In this document: positions 6,330-33,871 of the stretch, piece by piece
Position numbering within the stretch: the first letter of the stretch is position 1
Layout of the letters: each line of letters starts with the position of its first letter
Origin: a bacterium
GTDB lineage: Bacteria > Lernaellota > Lernaellaia > Lernaellales > Lernaellaceae
Direction: 5' to 3'
Assembly: GCA_036725605.1 (NCBI GenBank)
Contig: DAIMDW010000021.1
Coordinates: 28,044-92,043 of the forward strand
Length of the DNA: 64,000 nucleotides
Notes under the pieces: model-generated
The model's database searches: none
What the model was told of the DNA's origin: nothing
The model's input: the letters and a program-made list of their open reading frames with translations, nothing else
Made by a program: the position numbers and the translations under genes

Positions 6330-6345
6330 TTCCGCTGTTTTGCCT

Positions 6346-7181: not shown

Positions 7182-7219
7182 GTATCACGTTTTTAAGATA
7201 TGTGCTACTGCCCTGTCAA
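7182..7219 (-). promoter_or_regulatory. Sigma70-type promoter overlapped by palindromic operator GTATCAC-N13-GTGCTAC (NikR/RHH-like spacing)
   Basis: TTGACA at 7219-7214, TAAAAA 18 nt downstream; 7-13-7 inverted repeat with one mismatch at 7182-7208. Confidence 0.5.
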
Positions 7220-7311
7220 GAACAAAAGGCAATTGAAAAGCAACGATTTAGGGCTACTTAAAAAAGCGGATATTGTTTAATATCCAATTAAATTCTTAGA
7301 AAGGCGGCAAG

Positions 7312-7695
7312 ATGGGACTTATTGTGCATATCGCAGAAAAAAAGAACTGGGAGAAGGCAAAAAAGCAAGGCATCTATGCCGTGGAATCGCTTAAAAGCGA
7401 CGGTTTCATTCATTGTTCGACGATCGGGCAGGTAATGGATACTGCCAATCTTTTTTTTCCCGGCCGACAAGACCTGATCCTGTTATGCATAGACGAAAGC
7501 AAAACAAGTTCGCAGGTGAAGTACGAACCGCCCACCGGCGAAGTACCGAACAATCCTTCCGTCGAAGCGATGTTCCCTCATCTTTACGGGCCGCTCAATC
7601 TCGACGCGGTGGTCAACGTCTTTGATTTTCCGCCTGACCCGGATGGAACCTTCCAATTACCGGGCGAGGTGGCAAAGATCGAAGCCGGGCTGTAA
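7312..7695 (+). CDS. DUF952 family protein
   Basis: IVHIA..W..A...G.Y...SL..DGFIHCST, FPHLYGPLNLDAVV. Confidence 0.88.
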   Translation: MGLIVHIAEKKNWEKAKKQGIYAVESLKSDGFIHCSTIGQVMDTANLFFPGRQDLILLCIDESKTSSQVKYEPPTGEVPNNPSVEAMFPHLYGPLNLDAVVNVFDFPPDPDGTFQLPGEVAKIEAGL

Positions 7696-17331: not shown

Positions 17332-18123
17332 ATGAAAAAACACCGGCGGCTGTTTGTGCTTTGTCTGATCCCCGCGATTTTTTGCTTCGCCTGCTCGGCC
17401 GGAGGCGATGACGACGACGACCATTTTATCGACGGCGATGACGACGATAACAATGACGACAACAACGATGACAACGACACCGGCGATATGTGCCGGGAAG
17501 GGATTGCCGTACCGGCCTTTGAATCGGGATGGATCGACGCCGGGCTTCATCTCGCCTACGGCGACACGCTGACGATTGGTTCGACCGGAGAAATTACCCT
17601 GACTCAAAAGGGCGAATCCACAGGTCCGGACGGAATCGACGAGGTGTGCGGCCTCGGTTGCCCGGCCCCGGAATTGAATCGCGGCACATTGCTGGGAAAA
17701 GTATCGCCGGGGGACGGGACAACGGGCGTTCCTTTCCTTGCCGGTTTGAGCTACGAAAAACTAATCACCGAAGCGGGCAATCTTTATTTTATCGTCAACG
17801 ACGATTCCTACGAAGACAATGCCGGTTATTTTTGCGCCACGGCCAAGGCCTCTCAATCCGGCGACGATGACGACGATACCGGCGGCGACGACGATGATGA
17901 CGATGACGACAATCTTCCCGCCCAATGCAGCCCGGAGAACTTTGTAATTCAGGTGATCGACGTCGCCTACGGCACCACCGCCGGATTCGGCCGGCCCTTT
18001 GTGCCGGACAACGTTCTCGGTCCGCCGGTGGGCGGCGGCGACTATGCGCCCCAATCCAGCGCCACGCAGCTTCTCTCCCTGGGCGAAGGCGGGCAGATCA
18101 CCCTGAAGATGGGGCGCAGGTAA
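17332..18123 (+). pseudogene. Lipoprotein (poly-Asp, lectin/PA-IL-like domain, second surface domain) truncated at its 3' end
   Basis: Lipobox FAC; second domain stops at LSLGEGGQITLKMGRR*, where the related domains at 8450/10059 continue after SLGD...GEITLTFD with D..VFEN and EVS.DG. Confidence 0.65.
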
Positions 18124-18626: not shown

Positions 18627-19217
18627 GTGAATATGAAGGCCAAACAGAAATTGCCCGACGATCAGGATCATATCGTCGTTTTTGGAAAAGAAGTTCTCCG
18701 TTGCAAGGCTCGGATGAAAAACGGCGGCGGGCGATGCACACATCCGGCTGTGCGGGGTTATACCGTCTGTCGAATGCACGGGGCAAATCCAAAAAATCGT
18801 GGAGGCGCCCCACCGGAAAAAATGCGCGGCAACCTCAACGGCCTTAAACACGGAGCCTATGTCAAACGGCTAATCAATGAAGAGGACCATCATCTTTTTA
18901 ACGAGATGCTGGAGTCGATTCGCAAGGACTTCGATTTGAACGATTCGACGGATCAGATGCAGGCCGCGATGGCCAGTTTTTATTACACGCGATGGCATCG
19001 TGCTGCGGAAGGCGGGTCCGACTCGGCAATCGCAATGTTCGACGCCCTGATTCGCAAGCAGCTGGAATCGCTCAAGGTCACGAGGGCGCAGAGGGAACCG
19101 GAAACCAATTCCCACGGATCGCCGGCGGAATGGGCGGTTGCGTTGTTGCAAAGGGTGAAAGATGCGAAAAAGAAAGAGAAAACACCAGAGGAGGACGCCC
19201 TGGCAGAGGAAATTTAG
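18627..19217 (+). CDS. HGGxSTG-domain protein (terminase small subunit-like), copy 1
   Basis: RCKAR....G.RC..PAV.G..VCRMHG, GNLNGLKHGAY; paralog of 27863 and 47429. Confidence 0.75.
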   Translation: MNMKAKQKLPDDQDHIVVFGKEVLRCKARMKNGGGRCTHPAVRGYTVCRMHGANPKNRGGAPPEKMRGNLNGLKHGAYVKRLINEEDHHLFNEMLESIRKDFDLNDSTDQMQAAMASFYYTRWHRAAEGGSDSAIAMFDALIRKQLESLKVTRAQREPETNSHGSPAEWAVALLQRVKDAKKKEKTPEEDALAEEI

Positions 19218-19341
19218 CAGTCCTGCGGAATCGTCCCGTCATTGATCGCCCGTTTGATACACTCACCAGAGTCTCCGTATTATCCCAAGTCAAACCCCTT
19301 TTTCACTTGCCGGACCATAACAGATGTGTTATATTCGCGCC

Positions 19342-19692
19342 ATGAAGTGGAAAGTGGTTCGATACCGCCGCGCAAATGGCGAGATCCCGTTTGACGATTT
19401 TATGGCAAAGCTCCCGGTCAAGGACAAGGCGCGCGTTATCCGGACGGTCGACCTGCTGGAGATGTTCGGTACTGAATTGCGGGAGCCATACGCCAGGAAG
19501 ATCCGGGGTGCCGTCCTTTGGGAATTAAGGATCCGTTGCGGATCTAACGCTTACCGGGTCTTTTACGCGGGGTGGAAGGACCGGTCGTTCTATCTTTTCC
19601 ACGGTTTCTTGAAAAAGGCGCAAAAAACGCCCCGCAAGGAACTCGAACGGGCCAAAGGATACCTGGCCGAAATGAAAGAGAGGTCAAAATGA
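19342..19692 (+). CDS. higB: Type II TA toxin, RelE/HigB (Gp49/DUF891-like)
   Basis: LREPYARKIRGAVLWELRIR...YRVFY...LFHGFLKKAQKTP.KELE.A; toxin precedes antitoxin. Confidence 0.8.
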   Translation: MKWKVVRYRRANGEIPFDDFMAKLPVKDKARVIRTVDLLEMFGTELREPYARKIRGAVLWELRIRCGSNAYRVFYAGWKDRSFYLFHGFLKKAQKTPRKELERAKGYLAEMKERSK

Positions 19693-20048
19693 CCGATACG
19701 AAAGAAAAAAAGCGCTCCGACATGGAGACCTGCTTGGGCGCCGACTTCTCGGAATACAAAAAGCGACTTCTGGAAGATCCCGATGTCCGGAGCGCTTATG
19801 ATGAACTGGAACCGGAGTTCGAGTTGATCGCCTCGCTGATCGCGCTACGCGGACGCCGCGGAATGTCGCAGGACGAACTGGCCGAGGCGGTCGGCACCAA
19901 GCAGCCCGCCATCGCCCGTATAGAGAGCGGCCGCTACCGCGGCATGTCGGTCGCCACGTTGGAGAAGATGGCCAGGGCGCTTGACGCAAGGCTGGTCATT
20001 CGCTTCGAAGAAGCCAAGAAGAAGCGCCACCGGGCCGGCACCCGATAA
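19689..20048 (+). CDS. higA: XRE-HTH antitoxin (HigA-like)
   Basis: GMSQDELAEAVGTKQPAIARIESG HTH; 4-nt overlap with the toxin. Confidence 0.82.
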   Translation: MTDTKEKKRSDMETCLGADFSEYKKRLLEDPDVRSAYDELEPEFELIASLIALRGRRGMSQDELAEAVGTKQPAIARIESGRYRGMSVATLEKMARALDARLVIRFEEAKKKRHRAGTR

Positions 20049-23000
20049 TCCCGTCGCCGTTTCCTCTTGATTTTTCCTCGATCGAGAAGCTGCGGTCGCA
20101 TGACAGACTTTCAGTGACCAAGCGGATCGCCCTTTTAAAATGATCCATCCGCACTTTCAATGATTCCAGTGGAACATGATCGTGCACCGCTTCTTTCACA
20201 CAAGCCATACCTGCCTCGCGGCAGGCCAGTTCTATTTGCGCGCCGGAGAAGTTGAGTGTGAGGCAGGCCAATTCCAGTGGATCGATGTCGGTGTTGACTG
20301 TCATCCCGGCCATGTGTTTTGCAAAGATAGCGGCGCGGCCTTCTAACGATGGCGGACCGATGTGGATCATCCGGTCGAAGCGCCCAGGGCGGCGCAGGGC
20401 CGGATCGATTTCATCTGGGCGGTTGGTCGTGCCGATGACAAAGATACGACCGCGCTCCTCCAGGCCGTCGAGCAGCACGAGCATTTGCGACACGAGGGTT
20501 TTGTGGTGATGCCCTTCCGCCAGGCTTCTGGAAGATGCGACGGCGTCGATCTCATCGAAAAGGATCACCGAGGGTGCGAGCTTGCGGGCCCGGCCGAAGA
20601 TTGAGCGGATTTTCTCTTCGGCCTCACCGACCCATTTTGACAGCACCTCCGGCCCGGAGACGATTTCGATGTGCGCGCTGGATTCTCCGGCCACGGCTTT
20701 GGCCAGCAGGGTTTTTCCATTACCAGGCGCTCCATACAGAAGTACACCCCTGCCGCCTTGTGTGCCGATGCGCTTGAAAAGCTCGGCGTGCTTGATCGGC
20801 ATCTCCACGTAGTCGCGCACGGCCTCCACCGCGGCTTCCTGCCCGCGCACGTCGTCGTAACGGGTGGGAGGGATACGTCGCATCATGGGCGTCGCGGCGG
20901 TCCCGTTTCCGACGTGAAACGACAGTCCGCTTTTTACTTCGTTCTCCCGCATCAGCGTCCAGGGCAGATTGTACAGGCCGGTCGGCGCAATCCAGACTGA
21001 TTCGCCGGTGGAGCGATGATAAAGCATGGTCCATTGCACGTCGTTTTGCGGATCGAGCTTGTCGGGCAGGTCTTTGATTTTCTTTTCTATCTCATCATGA
21101 TCATGCAACGGGCACTGGCGGCACAGATCGTTTCGCTCGCTTTGCACCTGGGCTCGGAGCGAGTCTTTGTCGATGGAGACGGTGCTTCCGTCAAACGTCC
21201 CCACCGCCCACCAGGGCTGGAGGTTGTTGGCGTAGCGCAAAAACTCCGGCAGAGCCTCGATCCGTAGCATCCGGCAGCCGAGACGCGAGCCGGCGCCGTC
21301 GCACCCGGCCTTGCGATGACTGCGCCAGCATCGCCGCACCTCACGCAACCGATGAAGGTATGCGTCAAGCTCTCGCCCTTCCAGGGGATCGCCGCTGATG
21401 ATGATTTCCGCGCTTTTCCACGTACGGACCAGGGCGATGAGGGAAACGATCCGCGACGAATGGCGCACGATGTCCCGATTCATAATCACATCGATGTGGC
21501 GAAGCCGACCACGATCATCGCTTTCCACTAGGATATGACCACACCCGGCCAGCTTCTTCACACGGCGCAGGGCTTCGCCAAAATTGAGCGAGGGGCTGCG
21601 GCCGAAGGATACGACGATGGAAAAACCTGAAATTTGTGGTTTTCCGTTTGAAGCCAGCGCCGCGACTTCCCGTTCCAGCTTCTCCGTAGCCGCCCGGCTT
21701 TGATGGCCGGTTCGCGCCGGAGCGCCGAATTGCGAAACCGCCTTCCACCCTTTCTTTATTTTGGAGGCGATCCAAAGATCGGTTTGTGCTCCGATCTTCT
21801 CGCGAGTCGAAGCAACGCGGATGTCGGTTTTCAAGGGCGTTTCGCGTCCGGGAGAAAAGTCCGTGAAGTAAGCGACCCAGGGCGGATAGGCGGAATCGAC
21901 GGTATCCTTATTGGTCTTCCATATCACCAGCTTGCGCACCGCGAGACCGTGGTCCACCTTTTTCGTAAACACTTCCCGGCGAACCACTTCGGAAACGGGG
22001 AGCAACTGCTGGGGCGCATCGCCCTTTTCAATCTCGACCGGCGCCAGGTCCGTCACCTGGGAAAACCGCACATCCTGATCGTTGACGGATTTGTCATCCC
22101 GCACGCGCACGAATACCGCGTTGATCATGCTGATCGAAGGCGCGGGACGCAGAGGCGTCCAGCCTTCAGATTCCGAGTATTCCATCATCATGCGTCGGAT
22201 TGGTTCGTTGTTGGCGCGATGAGTGAGCAGGTCGTTGCACTTCACTTCCACGACCATGGTGGGTTTCACCCAACGGTGCAGGACGCCATGCTCCCCGGCC
22301 AGGCGGAATGACGATTCACATGCTGATTGGGAAAGTGAATCGAACAGCCCCCTGCGTTCCTTTTTAGAAAAACCGGTCCGAACTCGACCGATCAAGTGGA
22401 AACGATTTTCGTCTATGAGAGTGAGGAGAAGTTCGGATACTCGATGTTCCCCACCTTCGCAATATCCGACCACCGCAGCGTCAATGGCGATTTCCGGCTT
22501 GACCTTGAATATGCGCCCATCCGCCAAGCGGATTACGATCCCTTCCGCGCCGCCCTTCGTGACGACGCGGTCGTATGCCGCGATGATATCAGCACTGTCG
22601 ATTGCCGTTTCGAACCGCGCTGGATGAATACGCTCGCATTTCGCAAAAAGCTCCCGCAGCCGTTCCACCCGTTTCGCAAAAGGCAGTTGTTGCGCATCAT
22701 CGCTTCCATCCCGCAGCAGATCGAAGCTGGCAAAGCGCAACCGTTCGACTTCGGCTTTCGCCCAGCCACCCAATGCCGCGTGAAGATCATGGACGCGGGG
22801 GCGGCCCTGCTCGACTTTCGCGTAAAGCTCGCCCGCTGCCAGAATAGATTTGTCTCCCACCAGCTTTTTCGCTTCATCCAGCAGCGACACGCCGACGATC
22901 ACTTTCCCCGAAGGGGAAAGAAGGGCTGCCTCGCCACTCTCGACACGCAGAAACCATGTTTCGCCGTCCACCTTTTCGGAAAGGATGTGCTCTCCGGTGG

Positions 23001-23166
23001 GGATGCTTTTTGTGATGTCGTCCGGCACGACGCTTCGGTAGTTACCGGCCACGGTGCGTTTGTAGGTTGATAATCGCCTCAACAGTCTGATATCCGTCAG
23101 CGATCCCGCCGGTGCCATCCAGCCGTTGTTTCCAAGCCGCGTCATTCTGGATTCATCGACGATCAT
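19996..23166 (-). CDS. ATP-dependent DNA ligase-like domain + OB/WGR-like region fused to a CDC48-type AAA+ ATPase
   Basis: EKVDGE (KxDG), AEGIV, IFKVKP, GRVRTGFS ligase motifs; C-terminal GAPGNGKT, ILFDEIDA, TNRPDEIDPALRRPGRFD. Confidence 0.8.
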   Translation of the reverse strand: MIVDESRMTRLGNNGWMAPAGSLTDIRLLRRLSTYKRTVAGNYRSVVPDDITKSIPTGEHILSEKVDGETWFLRVESGEAALLSPSGKVIVGVSLLDEAKKLVGDKSILAAGELYAKVEQGRPRVHDLHAALGGWAKAEVERLRFASFDLLRDGSDDAQQLPFAKRVERLRELFAKCERIHPARFETAIDSADIIAAYDRVVTKGGAEGIVIRLADGRIFKVKPEIAIDAAVVGYCEGGEHRVSELLLTLIDENRFHLIGRVRTGFSKKERRGLFDSLSQSACESSFRLAGEHGVLHRWVKPTMVVEVKCNDLLTHRANNEPIRRMMMEYSESEGWTPLRPAPSISMINAVFVRVRDDKSVNDQDVRFSQVTDLAPVEIEKGDAPQQLLPVSEVVRREVFTKKVDHGLAVRKLVIWKTNKDTVDSAYPPWVAYFTDFSPGRETPLKTDIRVASTREKIGAQTDLWIASKIKKGWKAVSQFGAPARTGHQSRAATEKLEREVAALASNGKPQISGFSIVVSFGRSPSLNFGEALRRVKKLAGCGHILVESDDRGRLRHIDVIMNRDIVRHSSRIVSLIALVRTWKSAEIIISGDPLEGRELDAYLHRLREVRRCWRSHRKAGCDGAGSRLGCRMLRIEALPEFLRYANNLQPWWAVGTFDGSTVSIDKDSLRAQVQSERNDLCRQCPLHDHDEIEKKIKDLPDKLDPQNDVQWTMLYHRSTGESVWIAPTGLYNLPWTLMRENEVKSGLSFHVGNGTAATPMMRRIPPTRYDDVRGQEAAVEAVRDYVEMPIKHAELFKRIGTQGGRGVLLYGAPGNGKTLLAKAVAGESSAHIEIVSGPEVLSKWVGEAEEKIRSIFGRARKLAPSVILFDEIDAVASSRSLAEGHHHKTLVSQMLVLLDGLEERGRIFVIGTTNRPDEIDPALRRPGRFDRMIHIGPPSLEGRAAIFAKHMAGMTVNTDIDPLELACLTLNFSGAQIELACREAGMACVKEAVHDHVPLESLKVRMDHFKRAIRLVTESLSCDRSFSIEEKSRGNGDGIIGCRPGGASSWLLRSE

Positions 23167-23879
23167 AAGGCTGGCCTTTTAAGTTCCAGATTTGAAAGGT
23201 GGAGAACGAGAATATATTTTTCACCGTTTGTGCGACCCTCCAAAAAAGCGCGATACGGCGTGCCGTTTCGTTCGAGAATCAATTGATCGCGCCCCTTGGC
23301 TCCCGCGCCTATTGATACGAGAACCTTCTTTTTCTCCAGCGTAGCCGCCATGCGGTGCAGAAAATCGAATGTCAGGCCGTCAGAGTGCAGTACCTGAAAC
23401 TTCCGCGTGATCGCGAACCGGCGAACGATTTCCTCGCGTTGGTAAAATCGCCCCGTCCATCTCAGGGGCATGCCCTCGCCGATGTTCGCCTCCTTGTCGA
23501 CCGGCACCCGCCGCTCTTTTTCCATGCCGTCCGGTTCGTAAACGACTTCCATCATCGTGGCCGCATACAGCGGAATGCCCTCCGGATCGACCCACACCCG
23601 GTCGCAAGGGCCGGTGACGCGCCCCGCAGCTTCCATATCAATCTCCGGATCGCCTTGGGTCAGAGCGCGGGCCAGTGAATCGTCATCTTTGTAGTGGTGC
23701 CGCAGGGCGATTTCACCCCGTTCTATCGGGCTTTTAATGATCCGCTCGAAATGGACGGGACCGCCATCCGGTGTGCGAAACTCCTGTTTGGCCATGTGTG
23801 TGGGCGATGATATCCATACCAATCCGTCCCGCCCTTTTAAGTCTTCAAGTCGGATTTTCCGCATCATGGTTTTCCTCAC
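23163..23879 (-). CDS. Conserved hypothetical partner of the ligase (beta-rich)
   Basis: 4-nt overlaps with both neighbours; protein-like composition. Confidence 0.7.
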   Translation of the reverse strand: MRKTMMRKIRLEDLKGRDGLVWISSPTHMAKQEFRTPDGGPVHFERIIKSPIERGEIALRHHYKDDDSLARALTQGDPEIDMEAAGRVTGPCDRVWVDPEGIPLYAATMMEVVYEPDGMEKERRVPVDKEANIGEGMPLRWTGRFYQREEIVRRFAITRKFQVLHSDGLTFDFLHRMAATLEKKKVLVSIGAGAKGRDQLILERNGTPYRAFLEGRTNGEKYILVLHLSNLELKRPAL

Positions 23880-24448
23880 ATCGTATCAAATCCGAGGTCT
23901 TCATATTCATGGTCGTCATCTTCGAAAACGGCCTGGTGATCGTTTCCAATGAAATCGAACCGCGCCGGTTTCGTCGCCAGCAGAAAAACACCTTGCTCGT
24001 TGGCTAGAAGAAAGCCCCTGTCGGGCTCATGGTAAATGTCGCCCCGCGACAACGACGTTGCCAGGGTTAAAACAAGATCGGATGCGTTCGCCTCGTTAAC
24101 AGCGGTGACAATGCATTCCAGTAATGCTTCGGCCGAGACCGGTCCGGTCAATTCATGGGGGCTGTTCGGAACCGCGATCTCTTCACCGGAAGGCCGCCCC
24201 TGCTCATCCGAAGCTGTCAGGTCTTCCCGCGCTACAACATCGCCTTCCTCGCTCAGATACATCCCCGCGGTCGATCCCGCTCCCAAAACGTATTTCCCGT
24301 CGCGGGTTAGCAGCGCCGACGCACACTCGTTCCCCTGCGCGTCCAGCCCGATCAGGCACGTTGAGCTATAGAGCCGGGAGCGGTCCACACGATGGAGGGC
24401 GATCCGCGAAATGCTCCCCTGAAACATAATGTCAATTTTTCGGCTCAT
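23876..24448 (-). CDS. Conserved hypothetical, first gene of the ligase operon
   Basis: ATG 24448 after GGAG SD; VDRSRLY...LD..G.EC..A.LTRDG motif; acidic C-terminus. Confidence 0.65.
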   Translation of the reverse strand: MSRKIDIMFQGSISRIALHRVDRSRLYSSTCLIGLDAQGNECASALLTRDGKYVLGAGSTAGMYLSEEGDVVAREDLTASDEQGRPSGEEIAVPNSPHELTGPVSAEALLECIVTAVNEANASDLVLTLATSLSRGDIYHEPDRGFLLANEQGVFLLATKPARFDFIGNDHQAVFEDDDHEYEDLGFDTM

Positions 24449-24554
24449 GTACTTCTCCGGCCTCTCGTTTTTCAGGTGTGCATGAAGGCGGGATTTGCGC
24501 AGGAAGTCGAGGAAAAAGTGGCCAAAGAATTCTTTTACCCGGCGCGAGAAATCC

Positions 24555-24584
24555 CTTGATCTTCCCGCCAACCGAAGCGATGTG
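24555..24584 (+). promoter_or_regulatory. CTTGAY-N13-GAAGC promoter motif (unit A, copy 1)
   Basis: CTTGAT CTTCCCGCCAACC GAAGC GATGTG; homologs at 25800, 50059-50089 and 51086-51115. Confidence 0.55.
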
Positions 24585-24621
24585 TTGCTTCGTGAAATGC
24601 CGATTTGAAAGGAGGATATGA

Positions 24622-24831
24622 ATGGCGCGCTACATCCTGACCAACTTGAACACCGGAGCGATCCTCGGCCAAAAGCTCGATTCTGGAGGCATGCGCCTCT
24701 TCGTGAGCATCGCCGAGGCATACGAGACGCTGGCCCGGATGGAGGCAGCGGACGGCGAAAAAGTCGATGAGCCGGGCCGAACTTTCAATTCCTGGACTCT
24801 GTGTGAAGTCAATCCGGTCGAAAGGCCGTAA
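24622..24831 (+). CDS. Small hypothetical protein (homolog of 50839-51048)
   Basis: GGAGG SD; MARYILTNL.TGAILGQ shared with unit B. Confidence 0.8.
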   Translation: MARYILTNLNTGAILGQKLDSGGMRLFVSIAEAYETLARMEAADGEKVDEPGRTFNSWTLCEVNPVERP

Positions 24832-24846
24832 CCGAAGGGAGTGCCC

Positions 24847-25053
24847 ATGAAAAAATGCGATGTCCAAATCGGCAAGACATACACCGCGAAGGTCAGCGGT
24901 TTCGTCGTGCCGGTGCGTATCGTGAGCGAGTACCCCCATGGCGGCTGGATCGGAATCAACATCCTGACCCGCCGCGAGGTGCGCATCAAGACCGCCGCGC
25001 GTCTGCGGCGCGAAATCGACCCCCACATAACCAAACCCCAAACCAAAGCGTAG
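24847..25053 (+). CDS. Small beta-rich (SH3-like) hypothetical protein
   Basis: MKK.DVQIG.TY.AKVSG..VPVRI...GGW.G.N..T.REVRIKTA.RLR; absent from unit B. Confidence 0.7.
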   Translation: MKKCDVQIGKTYTAKVSGFVVPVRIVSEYPHGGWIGINILTRREVRIKTAARLRREIDPHITKPQTKA

Positions 25054-25065
25054 GAGGAGAATACC

Positions 25066-25485
25066 ATGACCACCAAGACCATCACGATCAAAGAGGCCGC
25101 CGAGAAGTACCTGACCCATCTGGGGGAACTCGGCAAGAACGAGCGGACCGTCGAGACATACGGCCGCCACCTGGACCTGGCCATCGCACACTTCGGTGAA
25201 TCCAAAGACATCGCCAAGATCCTGCCAGTCCACGTTTCCGCCTTCTTCAAGAGCGACGCGGTCAACAAGCTGATCCGCGAACCTAGGAAGGAGGGGGAGC
25301 CGCCTCGGGAACGCCCCCGCAGTCCTCACACGGTGGCTCAAACGAAAAGAGTTCTGCGCCAGATGCTTGTGTTCTGTAAGGACCAGGGATGGACGGACAA
25401 GGTGCCGCTGCCCAAGTCCGAGGCCGAGAAGGTCAAAGAAAAGACCGATCCTGATCATCCTGCTGAAGCCGGCCGGGAGGAATGA
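25066..25485 (+). CDS. Stand-alone phage-integrase N-terminal SAM-like (core-binding) domain protein
   Basis: AAEKYL.HL.ELGKNERTV.TYGRHL parallels the Xer N-terminus; no catalytic domain; homolog 50410-50820. Confidence 0.7.
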   Translation: MTTKTITIKEAAEKYLTHLGELGKNERTVETYGRHLDLAIAHFGESKDIAKILPVHVSAFFKSDAVNKLIREPRKEGEPPRERPRSPHTVAQTKRVLRQMLVFCKDQGWTDKVPLPKSEAEKVKEKTDPDHPAEAGREE

Positions 25486-25488
25486 CCA

Positions 25489-25710
25489 ATGGGCGACAAG
25501 GTCAAAATCCCCGCCAACGTCCTCGAAGGCATAAAGGCGGTCCGGATATCCGGTCGTACGAACATGCTGGCGCGTGATGTTGTCGCCGCCATCGCCCTGG
25601 AACTCGGATACGTGGACGCGGCTTTCTGGCTGGATGACAAGGCCAATCACAAAACCTACGCCACCGGCATTTTCAACGGCTTCGCCGAGGAGGATTCTCC
25701 CACTCCGTAA
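25489..25710 (+). CDS. DUF5049-like small protein
   Basis: VLEGI.AVR.SGRTNML; homolog 50179-50406. Confidence 0.7.
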   Translation: MGDKVKIPANVLEGIKAVRISGRTNMLARDVVAAIALELGYVDAAFWLDDKANHKTYATGIFNGFAEEDSPTP

Positions 25711-25739
25711 ACTCCCGCCACAGCACGATCCCGCCTCTT

Positions 25740-25763
25740 GCGCCCTTTGCGGGGCGCTTTTCT
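25740..25763 (+). terminator. Rho-independent terminator
   Basis: GCGCCC-TTTGC-GGGGCGC then TTTTCTT; same hairpin in unit B at about 50131-50149 (-). Confidence 0.65.
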
Positions 25764-25866
25764 TCGGGCGGAAGAATTTCGCATAACTACTTGTTTCGCC
25801 TTGACTTTCACATGCGCCGAAGCCCTCATGCGGTCCATGAAAACGAGGACCACAAACCACAGGGAG

Positions 25867-26061
25867 ATGAACATGACGGAGTTTTACCAGACGCGCATGG
25901 GGCGCACGTTCTATGACCACACCCTGCCGACCATCGCAAAGGAACTGGGTCGGCTCAACGGGCTGCTGGAACGAATCGCCACGGCAATGGAAAAGCAGAA
26001 CCCCGGCCAGAGCGAAGGCCAGGACCAGAGCAACCAGGAGGTCAACGATGGCAAAGCCTAG
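25867..26061 (+). CDS. Small coiled-coil hypothetical protein
   Basis: EFYQT.MGRTFYDHTLPTIA.EL.RLN; homolog 49516-49686. Confidence 0.75.
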   Translation: MNMTEFYQTRMGRTFYDHTLPTIAKELGRLNGLLERIATAMEKQNPGQSEGQDQSNQEVNDGKA

Positions 26062-26263
26062 ATTGCGACGCGGAATGATCATGCGGTACGTGGGCGACGA
26101 CCACGCTTTCATGAAGGGACTCAAAGTCAAACTGATCGCCCCGATTCGCGGGGGCTGGTGGGATGTCGCACCCTGGATCGAAAAGGACGAACGCTTTTCC
26201 TGGGTCACCAGCGACGCCCGCCGCAAGGATCTGGTCCCGCTGGACGAGGAGGGAAAATCATGA
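26048..26263 (+). CDS. Small hypothetical protein
   Basis: GLKVKLIAPI...WWDVAPWIE..RFSWVTSDARR; homolog 49308-49535. Confidence 0.75.
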   Translation: MAKPRLRRGMIMRYVGDDHAFMKGLKVKLIAPIRGGWWDVAPWIEKDERFSWVTSDARRKDLVPLDEEGKS

Positions 26264-26553
26264 AACTCGAAATCGCCATCGACGTGCTCCAGTCCATGAT
26301 CGAACGCGCCCAGGGGAATCTGATCGCCATTCCGGAAGAGGAAGAGGTTGAAGCCCTGCAACGCGCAATCGACTGCCTGACCACCGCCGTCATCAAGCGG
26401 GAGGCTGAAATCAACCGGGCCGTCCACATGATCCGCGAGATCAGCGGGTGGCCTGACAAGGACGTTTCGGAAGTATGGATTTTCCTTCGTGACAAGATTC
26501 GGTTCAGCGAGGACGAGAAACTGGAAATCGAGAGCCGCCTGGGAATCAGGTAG
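26260..26553 (+). CDS. Helical hypothetical protein, distant paralog of the next gene
   Basis: EAL..AI.....A...RE.EI..AV..I....W....D.I.F..D.K.EI..RLG shared with 26563. Confidence 0.7.
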   Translation: MKLEIAIDVLQSMIERAQGNLIAIPEEEEVEALQRAIDCLTTAVIKREAEINRAVHMIREISGWPDKDVSEVWIFLRDKIRFSEDEKLEIESRLGIR

Positions 26554-26562
26554 GGGGTGACC

Positions 26563-26844
26563 ATGAATTTCAAGCAAGCGATCAAGGTGCTTCGCGCCCG
26601 CAAGCGACGCACAACCGGCAACGAGGCCGAGGCCCTGGCCATCGCCATCGAGCAGATGACCAAGGCCGACCGCAACCGGGAGGCCGAGATCGCCAAGGCG
26701 GTGGAGCTTATCCACGACGCGGTGTTCGACTCTGAGGGCAATCTTCACGAAAGCGCCTGGAGCTACATCAAGGATCGGATCGACTTCCCGCCCGACGACA
26801 AGGCCGAAATCATCCGGCGGCTCGGTCTGGACGAAAAGGAGTAG
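26563..26844 (+). CDS. Helical hypothetical protein
   Basis: Homolog of 49009-49305 (HESAWSY.KDRIDFP..DKAEIIRRLGL). Confidence 0.8.
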   Translation: MNFKQAIKVLRARKRRTTGNEAEALAIAIEQMTKADRNREAEIAKAVELIHDAVFDSEGNLHESAWSYIKDRIDFPPDDKAEIIRRLGLDEKE

Positions 26845-26847
26845 CCG

Positions 26848-27732
26848 GTGAATCTGCAAACCGCCATCGACCAATTCCTCACCCGGCTCGAAGCCGAGGG
26901 TAAAAGCTCGCACACCATCAGCTGCTATCAGCGGGACCTGCGATCGCTTGCGGCATTCGCGGGCGACATCGCCGTCGCCGAACTCACCGAGGACCTGCTG
27001 GCCCGGTTTCTTCTGTCCGACTCCGTAACGAAAACGCACACGGGCGCCCGTCGCGGCCAAGCCAGCATCGGGCGCATAAAGGCCTGCCTGAAATCGTTTG
27101 GGCGCTTTGTGGCCAACGTGGGCGCGACGGGGCGCGACCCCGCCGCATGGATCAAAGTGAAACGCCACCAGCGCGAGACGCCCAGCTATCTGACGCCCCA
27201 GGAGGTCAAGGTCCTGGTGAAAGCCGTGGCGTCCCGCAAGGGCGCGGCAGCCGAACGCGATCTGGTCATGCTGAAGATTCTGCTCGGCACCGGCATCCGG
27301 CTTGCGGAATTGGTCGGGCTGGACATCGCCGATATCAGGCTCGACGACAAGAAGCTGAGGCTTCGCCACACCAAGGGCGGGCATGCCCAGGAACGATTCA
27401 TCGCCACCGACCTGCGCCGCGCCCTGCGAAAATACATCCGCGAACGCAAGAAGGTCGCCGCCGACTCCGAAGCCCTGTTCCTTTCCAACCGCAACACCCG
27501 CATCAGCACCCGCCAGGTGCAGGCCCGCATGAAGCTCTGGCTCGCCTGGGCCGGGCTCGACGGAAAGATCACCGTCCACGGTTTGCGCCACACCTTCGCC
27601 ACGACCCTTTATGGCCGCACCCGCAACCTGCTGCTGGTATCCAAAGCCCTCGGCCACGCCCAGGTCGCCACCACGCAAATCTACGCCCACATCGCCGACG
27701 ACGAACTCGAACAGGCACTCGAAGCCCTTTAG
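26848..27732 (+). CDS. Tyrosine recombinase (XerC/D-like integrase), unit A
   Basis: Catalytic R (GIRLAEL), K (TKGG), HGLRH, LGH, Y (TQIYAH). Confidence 0.93.
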   Translation: MNLQTAIDQFLTRLEAEGKSSHTISCYQRDLRSLAAFAGDIAVAELTEDLLARFLLSDSVTKTHTGARRGQASIGRIKACLKSFGRFVANVGATGRDPAAWIKVKRHQRETPSYLTPQEVKVLVKAVASRKGAAAERDLVMLKILLGTGIRLAELVGLDIADIRLDDKKLRLRHTKGGHAQERFIATDLRRALRKYIRERKKVAADSEALFLSNRNTRISTRQVQARMKLWLAWAGLDGKITVHGLRHTFATTLYGRTRNLLLVSKALGHAQVATTQIYAHIADDELEQALEAL

Positions 27733-27862
27733 AACGACCAGCAGCGCCGCGATTCTTTTATGCGCATAAGGCGTCTTATGAGACGTTCCGTGGAAAATCG
27801 AGACGCGCAACGTCGCGGAACTTCGAGACCCGCCGACCGGACCGCCAACGACTTCTGCGAAC

Positions 27863-28498
27863 TTATTTTTGCGTTTTGCCGTCATCCGTCTCTTTTTCCT
27901 TGGCATCTTTCACGCGGGCCAGCAGAGCCACCGCCCATTCAGCGGGCGTGGTGGTCGGCCCGGAACCGCTGTCGCGCTGGGCGCGGGTGGTTTTCAGGCA
28001 CTCCAGCTGCTTGCGAAAGAGCACGTCGTAATTGCCGACTGCGGCATCGGCATTGCCGAGAACCGCGCAGTGCCACTTGGCGTAATAAAAAGCCGCCATC
28101 GATGCCTGGGCGAGGTCGGTTGATTCGTTGAGATCGAAGTCCCGGTGGATCGCGGCGAGCAGTTCCTCGAAGATCGCCTTCTCCTCGTCGGTCAGCATCT
28201 TTTTCACGTAAGCGCCGTGCTTGAGACCGTTGAGGTTGCCGCGCATCTTTTCCGGCGGCGCACCACCGTGGTTTTTCGGATTGGCACCATGGAAGCGGCA
28301 GACCTTGTAGCCTTCCACGACCGGGCTCTTGCACCGCTGGCCGGTGCTTTTCGATTTCGCCTTGCAGCGAAGGACGCGCCGTCCCAGCACAACAACGAAA
28401 TCATCGTCGTCGCCAACCGGAAGTGAGGCGGCGTTTTGTTCGGCGACATTACCGGGGTTGGATTTCGCTTTTTCGTCGGTTAATTCAGCCATTTTCAC
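27863..28498 (-). CDS. HGGxSTG-domain protein (TerS-like), copy 2
   Basis: RCKAKSKSTGQRCK.P...G..VCRFHG, GNLNGLKHGAY. Confidence 0.78.
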   Translation of the reverse strand: MKMAELTDEKAKSNPGNVAEQNAASLPVGDDDDFVVVLGRRVLRCKAKSKSTGQRCKSPVVEGYKVCRFHGANPKNHGGAPPEKMRGNLNGLKHGAYVKKMLTDEEKAIFEELLAAIHRDFDLNESTDLAQASMAAFYYAKWHCAVLGNADAAVGNYDVLFRKQLECLKTTRAQRDSGSGPTTTPAEWAVALLARVKDAKEKETDDGKTQK

Positions 28499-29725: not shown

Positions 29726-30492
29726 CAGAACAGCCGGGCCTGTTGCGGCGGCTGCGTGGGTTTGGGTTGAGGGGGTTGGGTTTCGGGTTTCGGTGGTGAC
29801 GTGGGAGCCGGACTTGGGGTGTAAAAATCCTCCGGAATATCCCGCTGCGGTCCCACGTATGTGATTTCGCTCCCGGGAAATGCGTGCATCACCATCGAAA
29901 GTTTGCGCAGGTCCTCGGCGGAAATTTCGATGCGATCCTGGCCAGCCCTGTCGGTGTAATCGGGAACGAGCGTGAAATCCCCGGGCTTGGATTTGACGTG
30001 GACCTCGACGCCCAGGGCCTTGAACGACTCGACGTCCTTGGGCGTGAGTTCGCGGGAGACGAGGGTCGCGGCGCAGTCTTCAGCGGATTCATGGTCGAAC
30101 CCGCCGTCAAATTCCATGATCGCCGCGCGTTCGTCCCAAGACTCGACGATACCGATGGCATGGTCATGGGTGGGCGCGACATATAATTTCTCGTCCAGGG
30201 TGTCCAGCGCCGTGAGCAGAGCCTTGTCGCCGAGGTGCTCCAGTGCCCAGGTGTTTATCGCGTTGAACCGCTGGCGCAGAGTTTTCCAGGTTTGGGCTGC
30301 CAGCTTACCGGCTTCGTGCGCTTTTTTGGCTCGCTCCATCCGGCGACGAAGCCAGGCGTAGTACGGGGCATCGAGGCGGCGATAAACGGTATTGCCGATC
30401 ATCACGTCCTGGGGATGGTCGGGGGCATTTTCCAGTGTGATGTGCCTCAGGTCCGTGGCGACGCGCAGGGCGACCTTGTTTTTTTCACTCAT
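29725..30492 (-). CDS. Hypothetical protein
   Basis: Coupled to neighbours; contains WDERAAIMEFDGG, a motif often seen next to primases in such elements. Confidence 0.65.
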   Translation of the reverse strand: MSEKNKVALRVATDLRHITLENAPDHPQDVMIGNTVYRRLDAPYYAWLRRRMERAKKAHEAGKLAAQTWKTLRQRFNAINTWALEHLGDKALLTALDTLDEKLYVAPTHDHAIGIVESWDERAAIMEFDGGFDHESAEDCAATLVSRELTPKDVESFKALGVEVHVKSKPGDFTLVPDYTDRAGQDRIEISAEDLRKLSMVMHAFPGSEITYVGPQRDIPEDFYTPSPAPTSPPKPETQPPQPKPTQPPQQARLF

Positions 30493-33400
30493 GGTCTTCC
30501 TCCTGGGGATCGAAGTCGGCCAAATCGCCGGAAAGCGTTTTGCGGTGGGTTGGGTGGGTTGCGGTGTGTTCTCCAGCAGATTCTTCCTGCGCGCCCGCGT
30601 ACGCGGACCGGGAATTATTCACCGCACTCACCGCATTCACCGTGGAGCATTGATTTTGTTGAGGATTTTCCTGCGGTGAGTCTGCGGTGGGTTGATTTGA
30701 CTCACCGCGCGGTTTTTCGGCCTTTTTGGAAAAGAGATCGACTATTTCACCGGGTGTTCTGCCTTCGCCGTCGCTGACATTGACGAGGCCGTAGGTCTGG
30801 TTTTTGGTTCTGGGATTTCGCTGGATCGATATCCGGTAAATATCAAACTGCCGATCGCGCATGGCGCTGAGGGCTCGTCCGAGCCGAATCTTCTGGGACT
30901 GGGGGCCCTTGTCGCCGATGGTTGCGGAGAGCAGTCCCCGCTCAGTGGCAAGACCCAGGAGTTCGGCAGCGGCCACATATCGCGGCCCGAACCGATCCCA
31001 CCATTCGGCGGTGAACTCCCGCCATTCGTTGCCCTCGTGGTCGGCGGCTTCATATAGTTCTTCGAGATCACCGAGAAAACCGGGGATATCAGCGAACTTC
31101 AGGATGCCGCCGATGGTGCGTGCCCAGGAATCGAAGGACCCGAACGATACTTTTTCCGTCTTTTGGCCCGCGACAACCCAGCCGCGAATGATGGTAAGAA
31201 GCGCGGTGATCAGTGCGGATCTGTTGCGCTCTACCCAGTCATCAAGGGGAGAGTGTTTAAACCCCGAGAGCAACCACGGCCGATCATGATGGGAGTCGAT
31301 TCGGATGCGAACGCAGCGCCGGGCGATCTCCAGGGTAAGCGTGGGATTGTTGGCGGTGGCAAGCCAGAGCGCATTGTTGGGTAAGGTGACGATATGGCTG
31401 GAACCCAGGATGCGGTCGCTCCACTCGGTGTCCGTAAGCACGCTGGCCAAGAATGCCGACCTGATGCCCCCGGAAATATTGTCGAGGAGGATGATTTGGG
31501 GTGCGCGGCTCAGTATCGATGTGAATTTCTTGGCGTTTTCTCCCTCGTCCCTGACGAGCGGCAAACTGGCGGCTTCCTTTTTGGCGAGGGCGATTTTCGA
31601 TATCGCTTTTGCAAGCAGCGACTTTCCGGTGCCCGGTGATGGTGATTCGATCAGGTGCAAGGGCGTCGGCCCCTGGATCATGCGGCGCACAAAGGGATGC
31701 AACAGCGCGGCGATGGCATGGGCGCGATCCGATGGGGCCGTGAACGGAAAATCGACGAGCAGGTCGTTGATCAGCAGGGAGCGTGCCTCGGCCACCTGGG
31801 AATCGGTGGGGTGCTCGGGAACATTCACCGGTTCGAAGCCGCGTGGACGATGAAGCCAGAGTCGAGCATCACGGTGATATCCCGGCGCTTGGACGAGGCT
31901 GCCGTTTCGATCAAAAGTGGGGGTGGTTGCAACGCTTTCCAACGGAGGAAGCGAGTGATGCGGCCGCTTCACCATAACCATCGGAAGTTCCTTGGGCGGA
32001 TTGGCGGGCAACTCCATGTCGGGAGTTCGCCGAACCCAAGAGGCGATGCTGCATAAGTGATCGAACATGATGGTGGCGTCCACGGGAATGATTTCCGGGG
32101 TGTCTTTGAAAAAGGTCAGGCACACCGGGGAGCCGGTTCTCATGAACAGCTTCGGCGGATAATTGGAGGACTGAACCGCCGCCCAAGCCTCATCGCGGAT
32201 GTAGCGAAAATGGCGGTTGTTCACGATGATGGTGGGAAGGCGGGGGCCATCACCACCATTACTTTTCGGGCCATCACCCATTACTTTTTGGGCCTTCGGA
32301 CCATTACTTTTTGGCTGAATGTAATGGTCGGGCATTACTTTCGGGGTTGCTGAACCATTACTTTCCGCCTCGATGTAATGGTCTCCATTACTTTTGGCAT
32401 TACTTTCGGTTTCGGATGTAATGGTCGCGGTGGGTTCCGCCATTACTTTTTGCGGTAAAATGTAATGGTCTTGCTCGTTGCGGAGGATCTGTTCGTCTTT
32501 CGCCATACGGTGGAGCAGGACGCGAGTCGAGTTTTGATCGCGTCCCAGGCGCTCGGCGACGTCTTTGGGAGCAAGAGGCTCCTCGGCCTCAATAAGGCAT
32601 TCCAGAATCTCCCGGCGCTTTTTCGATTTGACCCCGTCGACCAATTCCGCCGGATCGATGTCCATGAACTCGGCGATCTCCTCGTCCGTGGGCAACGGCG
32701 GGTGATCATGTCTCGGCGGCTCCCATCCGGCCTTTTTCGCCATATCGAACAGGGTGCCGAGGGTGACGCCGCCGCCGGACGAGAAGCTCCCCCACTTGTC
32801 CTCGGGTTCACAGGCCACGTATTTGTCGCCGCGAGCGCTCCACGAATCCCAGATGGAAAGTCCGGCCTGCGGTTCCCATTCGTGGAGAGCCATGCCGATC
32901 CGGACCCAGTCGTCGTAGGAACAGTCGGGGGATATGGAGTCCAGGGCAGAGATGACGAGATCGGAGTCGGTTGCCGGATAATCGGAGGGGCCAGATGATG
33001 GGCTGCGGGGCCCGGTACTTTTCTCCTGCCTCTTGGGCCTCTTCTTTAAAACCACATTGCACAAATCATCCGGCACCTGGTCAACGATGGCGGCGAGATC
33101 GGCAACTGAAAACCGTTCGAATTCCTGGGGATCGCTGGGCGCGGGTTCGCCATCGTCGCCGACCACGTAAAACCTGTTGCCGCCGTCCTTCGCATCGAAC
33201 CAGAACGGCAACCAGACTAGGTTGCCCGCCGAGTGCTTGGTGCTGCTCACCTTGTTCTGTTTCGGGAAGCATTCGATGCCCCTGTTGGTGCGTACATCTG
33301 CGATCTCGCCGGTAACCAGGGGTTGATCGACCGGTGCAATGAAATGGCCGAGCAGTCTGGCATCAACAGCCGGAACCGGCTCTTCGAAAAACACCCAGAG

Positions 33401-33871
33401 ATGCCATCCGGCGCCGCTGCCCGATTTTTCGATGTGGACGGGGATGCCGAGTTCGCAACACCGTTGGTAGCACACCATCATCGTTGCCAGCGGATCAGCC
33501 AGCGTCGTGCCCTTGGAGTGATCGGCGCCCGGGCCGTCGAAATCGAGACAAAGCCAGGAGGCGGTATCATCGGGGGCGACCGAATAGCTTCCCAGACGAT
33601 CAAAACCCCGCCCATCGGCAACTTGGCCGGATGTTCTGCGATTGATGTAATTGAGCGGCGGGGCCTTGCCGCCGGACGGTCCGACCACATGGAAAGCGAT
33701 GAGATCGCCAAGGGCCTTCTCTTCCCGAACAGGACGCGGCCGGGATTTCGTTTCTCCGGATTTGCGATCCACCCACGATTGGCAGGCCGCGACGATGTCG
33801 ATCCGGGCAAAAAAGTATTCGCGCAACAGGCGACAGGCTTTTTCTTGCTCCGAGGTCAACCGCCTACCCAT
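30485..33871 (-). CDS. Replication protein: AEP (TOTE-type) primase + PriCT-2 + wHTH + NTPase/helicase, unit A
   Basis: WLCLDFDG, HIEKSGSG.GWHLWVFF, SYDDWVRIGMALH...WD.WS..G.KY, SPSPGTGKS, ILLDNI; start at GGAGG-preceded ATG 33871. Confidence 0.85.
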   Translation of the reverse strand: MGRRLTSEQEKACRLLREYFFARIDIVAACQSWVDRKSGETKSRPRPVREEKALGDLIAFHVVGPSGGKAPPLNYINRRTSGQVADGRGFDRLGSYSVAPDDTASWLCLDFDGPGADHSKGTTLADPLATMMVCYQRCCELGIPVHIEKSGSGAGWHLWVFFEEPVPAVDARLLGHFIAPVDQPLVTGEIADVRTNRGIECFPKQNKVSSTKHSAGNLVWLPFWFDAKDGGNRFYVVGDDGEPAPSDPQEFERFSVADLAAIVDQVPDDLCNVVLKKRPKRQEKSTGPRSPSSGPSDYPATDSDLVISALDSISPDCSYDDWVRIGMALHEWEPQAGLSIWDSWSARGDKYVACEPEDKWGSFSSGGGVTLGTLFDMAKKAGWEPPRHDHPPLPTDEEIAEFMDIDPAELVDGVKSKKRREILECLIEAEEPLAPKDVAERLGRDQNSTRVLLHRMAKDEQILRNEQDHYILPQKVMAEPTATITSETESNAKSNGDHYIEAESNGSATPKVMPDHYIQPKSNGPKAQKVMGDGPKSNGGDGPRLPTIIVNNRHFRYIRDEAWAAVQSSNYPPKLFMRTGSPVCLTFFKDTPEIIPVDATIMFDHLCSIASWVRRTPDMELPANPPKELPMVMVKRPHHSLPPLESVATTPTFDRNGSLVQAPGYHRDARLWLHRPRGFEPVNVPEHPTDSQVAEARSLLINDLLVDFPFTAPSDRAHAIAALLHPFVRRMIQGPTPLHLIESPSPGTGKSLLAKAISKIALAKKEAASLPLVRDEGENAKKFTSILSRAPQIILLDNISGGIRSAFLASVLTDTEWSDRILGSSHIVTLPNNALWLATANNPTLTLEIARRCVRIRIDSHHDRPWLLSGFKHSPLDDWVERNRSALITALLTIIRGWVVAGQKTEKVSFGSFDSWARTIGGILKFADIPGFLGDLEELYEAADHEGNEWREFTAEWWDRFGPRYVAAAELLGLATERGLLSATIGDKGPQSQKIRLGRALSAMRDRQFDIYRISIQRNPRTKNQTYGLVNVSDGEGRTPGEIVDLFSKKAEKPRGESNQPTADSPQENPQQNQCSTVNAVSAVNNSRSAYAGAQEESAGEHTATHPTHRKTLSGDLADFDPQEEDHE
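30542..30708. repeat. CACCGC/GCGGTG iteron-like repeats in the 3' end of primase A
   Basis: About 8 direct and inverted copies within 170 bp. Confidence 0.5.
32257..32470. repeat. Intragenic iteron cluster: 8x CATTACTTT and 4x TGTAATGGTC
   Basis: Counted directly; encodes the KSNG/KVM/DHYI repeats between the wHTH and helicase parts of primase A. Confidence 0.8.

Follow-up and report, generated by a model that had tools for sequence, protein, structure and literature searches.

A predicted ATP-dependent DNA ligase fused to a Cdc48-like AAA+ ATPase, encoded in a conserved three-gene cassette of bacteria and their mobile elements

DNA ligases and Cdc48-type unfoldases are each well understood, but why should the two be built into one polypeptide? 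The question is raised by a gene in a 64,000-nucleotide stretch of DNA from a bacterium of the Lernaellota (GenBank assembly GCA_036725605.1, contig DAIMDW010000021.1, positions 28,044 to 92,043 of the forward strand), which is referred to here as the window, all coordinates being counted from its first nucleotide. A preliminary description of the sequence had drawn attention to one open reading frame (ORF) for 1056 amino acids (aa), joining ligase-like motifs to an AAA module in a combination that it did not recognise from characterised proteins. The ORF is present as described, at 19996..23166 on the reverse strand (3171 nt), and from an ATG start it specifies a single 1056-aa product, hereafter protein C. 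Sequence comparison and structure prediction establish its domain identities, its intact catalytic motifs, the operon in which it lies, its origin by fusion and its mobile-element context. From its make-up, protein C appears to couple the sealing of nucleic acids to the removal of a protein.

The first issue is whether the fusion is real. It is not a frameshift join, since the uninterrupted ORF recurs in three independent assemblies from different samples, with 3171 of 3171 nt matching in L167 (Logan SRR5007228) and L168 (ERZ27257410) and 3170 of 3171 in L169 (ERZ795057), and since 116 full-length homologues (1016-1105 aa, 42-80% identity) keep the architecture unchanged. In none of these assemblies is the ORF split in two. 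The source names of the homologues include Planctomycetota, Deltaproteobacteria and Armatimonadota, and the ligase-AAA fusion is thus real and conserved in several phyla. Nor does it belong to a common annotated family: the 164 protein clusters retrieved at E<=1e-5 are labelled only “AAA family ATPase” or “hypothetical,” and no curated family (Pfam, NCBIfam), PADLOC model or full-text paper describing such a fusion was found, in agreement with the initial impression that it is absent from characterised proteins. The full-text literature search likewise returned no description of the cassette to which the gene belongs, of its partner genes A and B, of the four-Cys domain discussed below, or of DUF4314 or AEP-TOTE. 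A scan of a genome collection with the full-length alignment was dominated by the generic AAA pattern, and one of its 80 loci (L003) was a true homologue. Residue conservation was scored in the alignment of the 116 homologues, to which all statements of invariance in protein C refer, and an AlphaFold2 model of the full-length protein reached a predicted local distance difference test score (pLDDT) of 84 and a predicted template modelling score (pTM) of 0.49. Among the relatives, a 3.3-Mb contig of L001 carries three paralogous ligase-AAA genes (P0081, P0084 and P0095), while at L163 (3272-13141) a whole unit of DUF4314, A, B and ligase-AAA genes is duplicated in tandem. In a decaying copy at L173 (10001-13138), which sits in a prophage-like region with baseplate and terminase genes, the ligase-AAA gene is broken in two: one product has 843 aa, and the other is a 165-aa AAA fragment.

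The N-terminal half of protein C (residues 1-482) has the build of a ligase. It opens with a family-specific extension (residues 1-52, 23011..23166; all parts of protein C lie on the reverse strand), recognised by conservation and in the model, in which Y35, K36, V39-A40-G41 and Y43 are conserved and which is modelled as a helix and strands with pLDDT 87-92. The nucleotidyltransferase (adenylation) domain follows at residues ~53-225 (22492..23010) with motifs I, III, IIIa, IV and V, and is matched by Pfam DNA_ligase_A_M (PF01068) over residues 53-217 with 31.5 bits against a cut-off of 26.2. Motif I reads S63-x-K65-x-D67-G68-E69, where K65, D67 and G68 are invariant, as are E113 (motif III), F148/D149 (motif IIIa), E208 of the pair E208-G209 (motif IV) and K221/K223 (motif V), so that the KVDG, EGIV and KVK motifs of the preliminary description are genuine. 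The OB region noticed at the same time is also real: residues ~226-365 (22072..22491) match Pfam DNA_ligase_A_C (PF04679) over residues 241-359 (45.3 bits, cut-off 27.5, E 1.2e-11), are modelled as an all-beta domain with pLDDT >85, and end in an invariant motif VI, R356-x-D358-K359, whose residues are required for step 1 with ATP. Searched as a profile against the PDB, the ligase half retrieved archaeal ligases (E 1e-21), human Lig1 (1e-13) and Mycobacterium tuberculosis LigD (1e-8), and every PDB match was a DNA ligase. The active site is predicted to be complete, apparently that of an active ATP-dependent DNA-ligase module, and all sequence-defined features of the ATP-dependent DNA-ligase superfamily are present, placing protein C within it.

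Its place inside the superfamily is less conventional. The nucleotidyltransferase-OB core with motifs I-VI is common to protein C and the minimal or LigD-type ligases (for example the M. tuberculosis LigD ligase domain, PDB 1VS0, and archaeal enzymes, 3RR5/2CFM; E 1e-21 to 1e-8), and the best NCBIfam ligase model is the ligase domain of LigD of non-homologous end joining (NHEJ), with a local match over residues 56-314. By contrast, the scores are far under the LigD family cut-offs (TIGR02779, 69.6 versus 227.75 bits; TIGR02776, 62.5 versus 373.2), and unlike LigD, protein C has no detectable polymerase/primase or phosphoesterase domain and no Ku partner, on which grounds membership in the bacterial Ku-LigD system was rejected. 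Unlike Lig1, it has no Lig1-type N-terminal DNA-binding domain. What sets it apart from the known ligases is the 52-aa extension, the two orphan genes A and B that precede it, and a basic beta domain closing the ligase half. This small beta-sheet-plus-helix domain (residues 385-482, 21721..22014), delimited by conservation and the model, consists of four strands, a helix and a strand, carries the invariant residues R397, R411, K412, W416, D436, R441, W465 and G473-W474, and occurs in every cassette ligase, with or without an AAA module, in the alignments of fused and AAA-less members alike. The preliminary description had called it WGR-like, a label that did not survive: Pfam WGR (PF05406) gave no match to this region in 45 fused members at E<=0.05, nor in 50 AAA-less members at E<=1, and a profile of residues 385-482 matched no PARP/WGR chain among PDB sequences, so that WGR identity is rejected at the sequence and profile level for these 95 members. 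Family and profile searches with the domain (Pfam, NCBIfam, PADLOC, PHROGs, PDB profiles) found nothing.

At the other end of protein C, residues 766-1023 (20098..20871) form a single AAA module of the classical clade, similar to the D1 ring of Cdc48/p97, together with its lid, as seen by Pfam (AAA at residues 808-937, E 8e-41; AAA_lid_3 at 960-994) and by Foldseek. Indeed, p97 was the only match of the full-length model in Foldseek, the AAA part superposing on p97 D1 with 41% identity, E ~1e-25 and a root-mean-square deviation of ~2 Å. The Walker A lysine K818, the Walker B pair D871/E872, the sensor-1 residue N915 and the arginine fingers R926/R929 are invariant, the LDG inter-subunit motif is present, and pore loop 1 reads (K/P)-(W/Y)-V-G847, with an invariant glycine and an aromatic residue that is tryptophan in 93 and tyrosine in 23 of the 116 homologues. 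The fold match, the Pfam score and the invariant catalytic residues bear out the intact module (Walker A/B and second region of homology) reported at the outset, and a complete classical AAA motor with pore loops of the polypeptide type is predicted. Walker A/B, sensor 1, the two arginine fingers, the aromatic-hydrophobic-glycine pore loop and the lid are shared with Cdc48/p97/VAT, PAN, Mpa/ARC and FtsH, but the NCBIfam matches to CDC48, PAN and FtsH are local (residues 763-1021) and all far under the family cut-offs; TIGR01243, for instance, is matched only over positions 170-439 of its 733, with 267 bits against a cut-off of 802. Unlike Cdc48/p97/VAT, protein C has one AAA module in place of D1 and D2, and a four-Cys N-domain in place of the double-psi beta-barrel and beta-clam. 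With a single AAA module, no p97-type N-domain and a score under the cut-off, it was not assigned to CDC48 proper. Unlike PAN and Mpa/ARC, it has no coiled coil with OB ring and no HbYX tail; membership there was rejected on the N-terminal region, the tail and NCBIfam scores under the cut-offs. A C-terminus of the HbYX type was sought throughout the 116 homologues and not found; the C-terminal tripeptide varies, AMN, RNE and AAG occurring most often, and the last residues of protein C (1024-1056 with the stop codon, 19996..20097) are an unconserved, disordered tail with pLDDT <50. The defence ATPase IetA is the best PADLOC match of the AAA part (E 1e-26, through the generic AAA core only). The IetAS defence system, described by Gao and colleagues in 2020, reportedly consists of an IetA ATPase and an IetS protease. 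Protein C was not taken as a member of IetAS, given an NCBIfam IteA score of 81 against a cut-off of 510 and no IetS-like protease gene in the locus.

Between the two catalytic units lies what had been termed an uncharacterised Cys-containing middle domain. The cysteines stand; the domain itself can now be defined, from the AlphaFold2 model and a profile search, as a four-Cys family that serves as the N-domain of separate Cdc48-like ATPases (residues 483-765, 20872..21720). It comprises a ferredoxin-like beta-alpha-beta-beta-alpha-beta half and a Cys-bearing half with C613, a Cys at 618-630, C631 and C685-P, and all 116 fusions retain C613, C631, C685 and at least one Cys between 613 and 631, a pattern that is probably metal-binding. 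Modelled alone, the domain reaches pLDDT 82.6; searched with this model, Foldseek gave no significant match in the PDB or BFVD (best E 0.09), no family or PDB profile matched the domain (Pfam, NCBIfam, PADLOC, PHROGs, PDB profiles), and no match was found in plasmid or phage collections. A profile search of 1.84 billion representative sequences, in turn, retrieved 559 proteins with the domain, many of them ligase-free. The ligase-free forms include proteins of ~540 aa (domain plus one AAA module) and 766 aa (domain plus two), as well as short or partial forms and forms with other N-terminal regions, and in them the four Cys are invariant (C...C...GC...CP) and accompanied by FGKSxS, IDK and LPD motifs. 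Moreover, a hidden Markov model (HMM) built from ligase-free members alone matches the ligase fusions at E 1e-22 to 1e-33. Judged by these profiles, the four-Cys domain is the predicted N-domain of a family of stand-alone bacterial Cdc48-like ATPases.

These ATPases point to how protein C arose. The ligase-free four-Cys AAA proteins (P0397, P0401 and P0452) have the same N-domain motifs and the same type of AAA module as protein C, but differ in having no ligase, in their neighbours (TIR, HNH, DUF3800) and, in some cases, in carrying two AAA modules; by this likeness they are evidently the donor of its C-terminal half. That half is taken to have been a pre-existing unit because the same domain occurs in ligase-free AAA proteins and the reciprocal HMM recognises the fusions. 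P0401, on a 3.1-kb contig, adjoins a TIR_2 protein, and P0397 (L174, 4783-6408) stands among HNH, small resolvase and DUF3800 genes; both are conflict-type neighbourhoods. The N-terminal half exists on its own as well: in 24 of the 30 loci with enough sequence, the ligase is a protein of ~480 aa whose last domain is the small beta domain and which lacks an AAA module, and a protein search with residues 1-482 returned short ligases of this kind by the hundred from Myxococcota, Planctomycetota and Acidobacteriota. The fused forms group in one clade of a neighbour-joining tree built on the ligase part; this clade also holds four short, possibly truncated sequences, and the pattern fits a single fusion event. 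By its domain relationships, protein C is therefore best read as a fusion of two existing genes, that of a ~480-aa cassette ligase and that of a stand-alone four-Cys/AAA ATPase.

Furthermore, protein C is not a lone enzyme but the third gene of a conserved A-B-ligase operon. In the window, gene A (23876..24448) and gene B (23163..23867) precede it on the same strand, both preceded by Shine-Dalgarno-like sequences; the starts in the cassette overlap or are closely spaced, and the stop of B overlaps the start of C as ATGA. L001, L002 and L003 have the same A-B-C order, with identities of 30-49%. With B as the seed, a metagenome scan returned at least 443 relatives, from which 80 loci were examined; a ligase gene lay <900 nt downstream of B in 58 of the 64 informative ones, and no fourth gene was seen consistently linked to the cassette in these loci. 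A scan of the operon for promoters and terminators gave nothing above shuffled expectation. The cassette also occurs in a cultured organism, Sandaracinus amylolyticus, where A (203 aa), B (248 aa) and a 544-aa ligase are followed by a DNA methyltransferase.

Both partners are orphan families. A has 190 aa, a start supported by a Shine-Dalgarno sequence (GGAG, 7-10 nt upstream) at M92 of a 281-aa ORF and called identically in three assemblies; at the loci sampled, its homologues are found upstream of B, some of them too divergent for tblastn and joined by clustering. It ends in an acidic tail (23876-23960 in the window; median net charge -10 over the last 25 aa), and 43 of 59 homologues, from both cassette types, share the C-terminal motif [DE]n-(L/M/F)-D-F-x-(M/L)-(M/F/L), which we presume to resemble the C-tail of the single-stranded-DNA-binding protein SSB, the hexapeptide beta-clamp-binding motif and the tail of the eukaryotic ribosomal P-stalk, a putative likeness. 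B, the most conserved partner, has 234 aa from an ATG at 23867 (an alternative GTG at 23879 would give 238 aa). Its 958 relatives at E<=1e-3 are all about 230-250 aa long, none with a Pfam domain, and D77-P78-E79, H165, D172 and E232 are invariant; B was absent from a viral-contig collection, GenBank phages and PLSDB plasmids. Neither A nor B matched anything in Pfam, NCBIfam, PADLOC, PHROGs or PDB profiles. The two were compared with each other, which gave a weak probability of 12%, and with the four-Cys domain, where no relation was found. A Ku-like nature was rejected at the level of sequence profiles, as hhalign returned a probability of 0.2% against validated Ku of Bacillus subtilis and M. 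tuberculosis, a two-sequence profile of low power, and Pfam Ku matched none of 59 A or 71 B homologues. At one locus (L094, 6464-7648), the first ~117 residues of A and the whole of B are joined in one ORF, which hints that the N-terminal part of A and B may act together.

How might such a protein work? The reading that we tentatively prefer, with a confidence short of even, is that protein C would be the enzymatic subunit of the three-gene cassette, a hexameric ligase-unfoldase that closes a nick or break and detaches a bound protein from the nucleic-acid end. The ligase part would self-adenylylate on K65 and seal DNA, or a DNA/RNA hybrid, at a nick or break, while the AAA part would form a hexameric ring displaying six ligase modules on its entry face. 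Using ATP, the ring would thread a polypeptide past its aromatic pore loops and thereby strip a protein from the nucleic-acid end. The protein removed could be the A/B complex, with the long acidic tail of A as a plausible handle for engagement, or some protein of the host or of an enemy, blocking the end or attached to it, and its removal would license ligation or recycle the complex, in the service of element maintenance or repair, possibly as counter-defence. We infer the substrate (DNA or RNA), the hexamer, which protein is unfolded, and the biological role. The coupling has a rationale in the segregase activity of p97/Cdc48, which removes Ku and further proteins from DNA in the setting of double-strand-break repair (reviewed in PMC5577460). 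The comparison is an analogy only: the eukaryotic arrangement likewise joins a Cdc48-type segregase to end joining and ligation (PMC5577460), but uses separate, ubiquitin-directed proteins, whereas here there is one polypeptide, and neither a ubiquitin-like system nor a Ku-like partner was detected. A more specific version, that of a self-contained hexameric ligase-segregase which removes a protein capping, clamping or covalently attached to an end (A/B, host or enemy) and seals that end within the same complex, is unlikely.

Several observations weigh against coupled sealing and stripping. Most cassettes are without the AAA module and evidently work without it, implying that unfolding is not needed for the core reaction, and none of the AAA-less cassettes was seen with an unfused four-Cys-AAA gene beside it, so that nothing independent points to a functional link preceding the fusion. 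For A and B, neither a fold nor a family is recognisable, and they show no similarity to Ku, which makes an end-binding role for them a guess. The gene content of the ligase cassette includes no polymerase, nuclease or kinase/phosphatase, which are usual in end-joining or RNA-repair systems. The pTM of the full-length model means that the relative placement of the domains is not fixed. Finally, several neighbourhoods resemble defence islands, with STAND/TPR NTPases, TIR proteins, HNH, methyltransferase and AbiE genes, and a conflict role would fit these at least as well.

The surroundings in the window are those of a mobile element. Downstream of the cassette, on the opposite strand, lies a Gp49/HigB-like toxin gene (19324-19692) with its HTH antitoxin (together 19324..20048; Pfam PF05973, E 2e-23, and HTH_3, E 3e-12). 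The 3' end of the antitoxin gene converges on the ligase-AAA gene and overlaps its last 53 nt (19996-20048). The pair and the overlap are also found in L167 and L168, but the pair is accessory cargo of the element and not part of the cassette. In L167 the pair is again accompanied by a gene that in the window lies at 18627-19217 (+), for a 196-aa protein with a Cys/His-rich N-terminus (C...C...CRMHG) and no Pfam match. Further out, host iron- or B12-uptake genes flank this side of the cassette, and a 263-aa predicted lipoprotein-like protein with two long poly-Asp runs and no family match (17332-18123, +) stands at their border with the island. On the other side, a block of small plus-strand genes ends in a tyrosine integrase (26848..27732, +; Pfam Phage_integrase, E 7e-38). 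Antisense to the integrase and other plus-strand genes, over 24.6-27.7 kb, runs a 1123-aa ORF (24535-27906, -), most likely a GC-rich artefact that codes for nothing; the genuine genes (DUF5049, a SAM-like domain, the integrase) are on the plus strand. Beyond the integrase follow an AEP-TOTE/PriCT_2 primase (30485-33913, -), a RecD2-like helicase (33864-36095, -) and a second AEP-TOTE/PriCT_2 primase (43593-46802, +) that is 52-58% identical to the first, the helicase gene and a PD-(D/E)XK nuclease gene (39403-40494) lying between the two primase genes. The primase genes are oppositely oriented, and the whole arrangement suggests two related integrative elements or one composite element. No convincing att-like direct repeats were found around the island, nor its boundaries, and the window contains no tRNA genes.

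Other fused copies keep similar company, namely a serine recombinase with DUF2924, DUF4314, Amidoligase_2/GATase_6 and an AEP primase-helicase, as well as large terminase, portal, baseplate, AbiE and Fic genes. Some AAA-less cassettes have a plainer chromosomal setting, with synteny between two Myxococcales genomes; others adjoin HNH, methyltransferase, STAND/TPR, TIR, or phosphoesterase and CCA-type nucleotidyltransferase genes. At L141 (82-9985), for example, the AAA-less cassette is flanked by a STAND/TPR NTPase and a TIR protein, and at L106 (5906-8914) it is preceded by a metallophosphoesterase and a PolyA_pol/CCA-type nucleotidyltransferase; L123 (5544-8898), with a 614-aa upstream ORF at 5544-7388, shares this nucleotidyltransferase by clustering. 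Protein C is a derived, mobile-element-associated variant of the A-B-ligase cassette.

Such neighbours lead to the strongest alternative, that the cassette is a conflict system for anti-phage defence or for the counter-defence of mobile elements, which is nearly as probable as our preferred reading and compatible with it. The ligase would then be no housekeeping repair enzyme but an effector or sensor acting on invading nucleic acid, for instance by abortive joining or adenylylation of ends, or else a repair arm that undoes an opponent's nicks or cuts; A and B would serve as subunits for specificity or regulation, and the Cdc48-like module would activate the complex or dismantle an enemy protein, all of these variants sharing that one probability. 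The HigB/Gp49-HTH pair in the window, the AbiEi/AbiEii and Fic genes next to fused copies, the STAND/TPR NTPase and TIR protein around one AAA-less cassette, and the HNH and N6/N4 methyltransferase genes directly downstream of some cassettes all argue in this direction, as do the ligase-free four-Cys-AAA proteins, of which one has a TIR protein as its neighbour while HNH, resolvase and DUF3800 genes surround another. The patchy phyletic distribution, the tandem duplication, the presence of up to three paralogues on a contig and the IetA match fit as well. Against this, IetA is reached through the generic AAA core without an IetS partner, no PADLOC model matches A or B, the family has no effector domain of a known toxic type, and defence-island neighbours are ordinary prophage cargo too. 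Moreover, the AAA-less cassette of the Myxococcales lies in a syntenic, housekeeping-looking locus in two genomes, and the absence of B from the phage, plasmid and viral-contig collections leaves no direct sign of phage involvement. The preliminary description had offered an end-joining or repair enzyme coupled to an unfoldase, or else a conflict effector; this was the right pair of hypotheses, and the evidence does not choose between them.

The repair of RNA rather than DNA is a less probable alternative still, and on balance a poor one. Here the ligase would seal tRNA or rRNA cut by a ribotoxin, A and B would heal or present the ends, and the unfoldase would remove the nuclease or a stalled protein. 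Weak Pfam RNA_ligase (PF09414) matches in 14 of 45 fused and 19 of 50 AAA-less members (best E 6e-8), and the metallophosphoesterase and PolyA_pol/CCA-type nucleotidyltransferase genes directly upstream of A in two loci, would suit such a role, and LigD/LigC-type ligases prefer ribonucleotide-containing nicks. Protein C itself, however, scores 15 bits against an RNA_ligase cut-off of 27, and it has an OB domain with motif VI, as do all of its PF09414-matching relatives. To our knowledge, DNA ligases and capping enzymes typically have this combination, and the known RNA ligase families are without it. In addition, the PDB profile matches are all to DNA ligases, the conserved core includes no kinase or phosphatase as a healing enzyme, and the nucleotidyltransferase neighbour is confined to two loci. 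Given that the motifs are invariant and that an OB/motif VI domain is present, both this alternative and the next are less likely. That the ligase domain was recruited for adenylylating proteins or small molecules or for mere DNA binding, leaving protein C a Cdc48-like remodeller with an unusual targeting domain, is very improbable, for although the AAA module with its four-Cys N-domain is self-sufficient in many ligase-free proteins and Amidoligase_2 and GATase_6, which suggest peptide-tagging chemistry, lie beside some fused copies, the amidoligase neighbours occur in 2 examined loci only, all six ligase motifs including motif VI are invariant, which argues for a working polynucleotide ligase, and the same ligase works without an AAA module in most cassettes.

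Whichever role applies, the analysis newly defines a widespread three-gene ligase cassette, present in S. amylolyticus too, the orphan families A and B, and a four-Cys N-domain family. If the coupling of ligase and unfoldase in protein C is functional, bacteria or their mobile elements would solve the problem of a protein stuck on a DNA end with a built-in segregase; eukaryotes handle it with p97 and ubiquitin. If the specific ligase-segregase version were true, protein C would be the equivalent in prokaryotes, within one polypeptide, of p97-assisted end joining or DNA-protein-crosslink repair, which mobile elements would use for genome circularisation or for repair-type counter-defence, and the A-B-ligase cassette, with ~1000 B-protein clusters and its two orphan families, would represent a new pathway of nucleic-acid repair or conflict.

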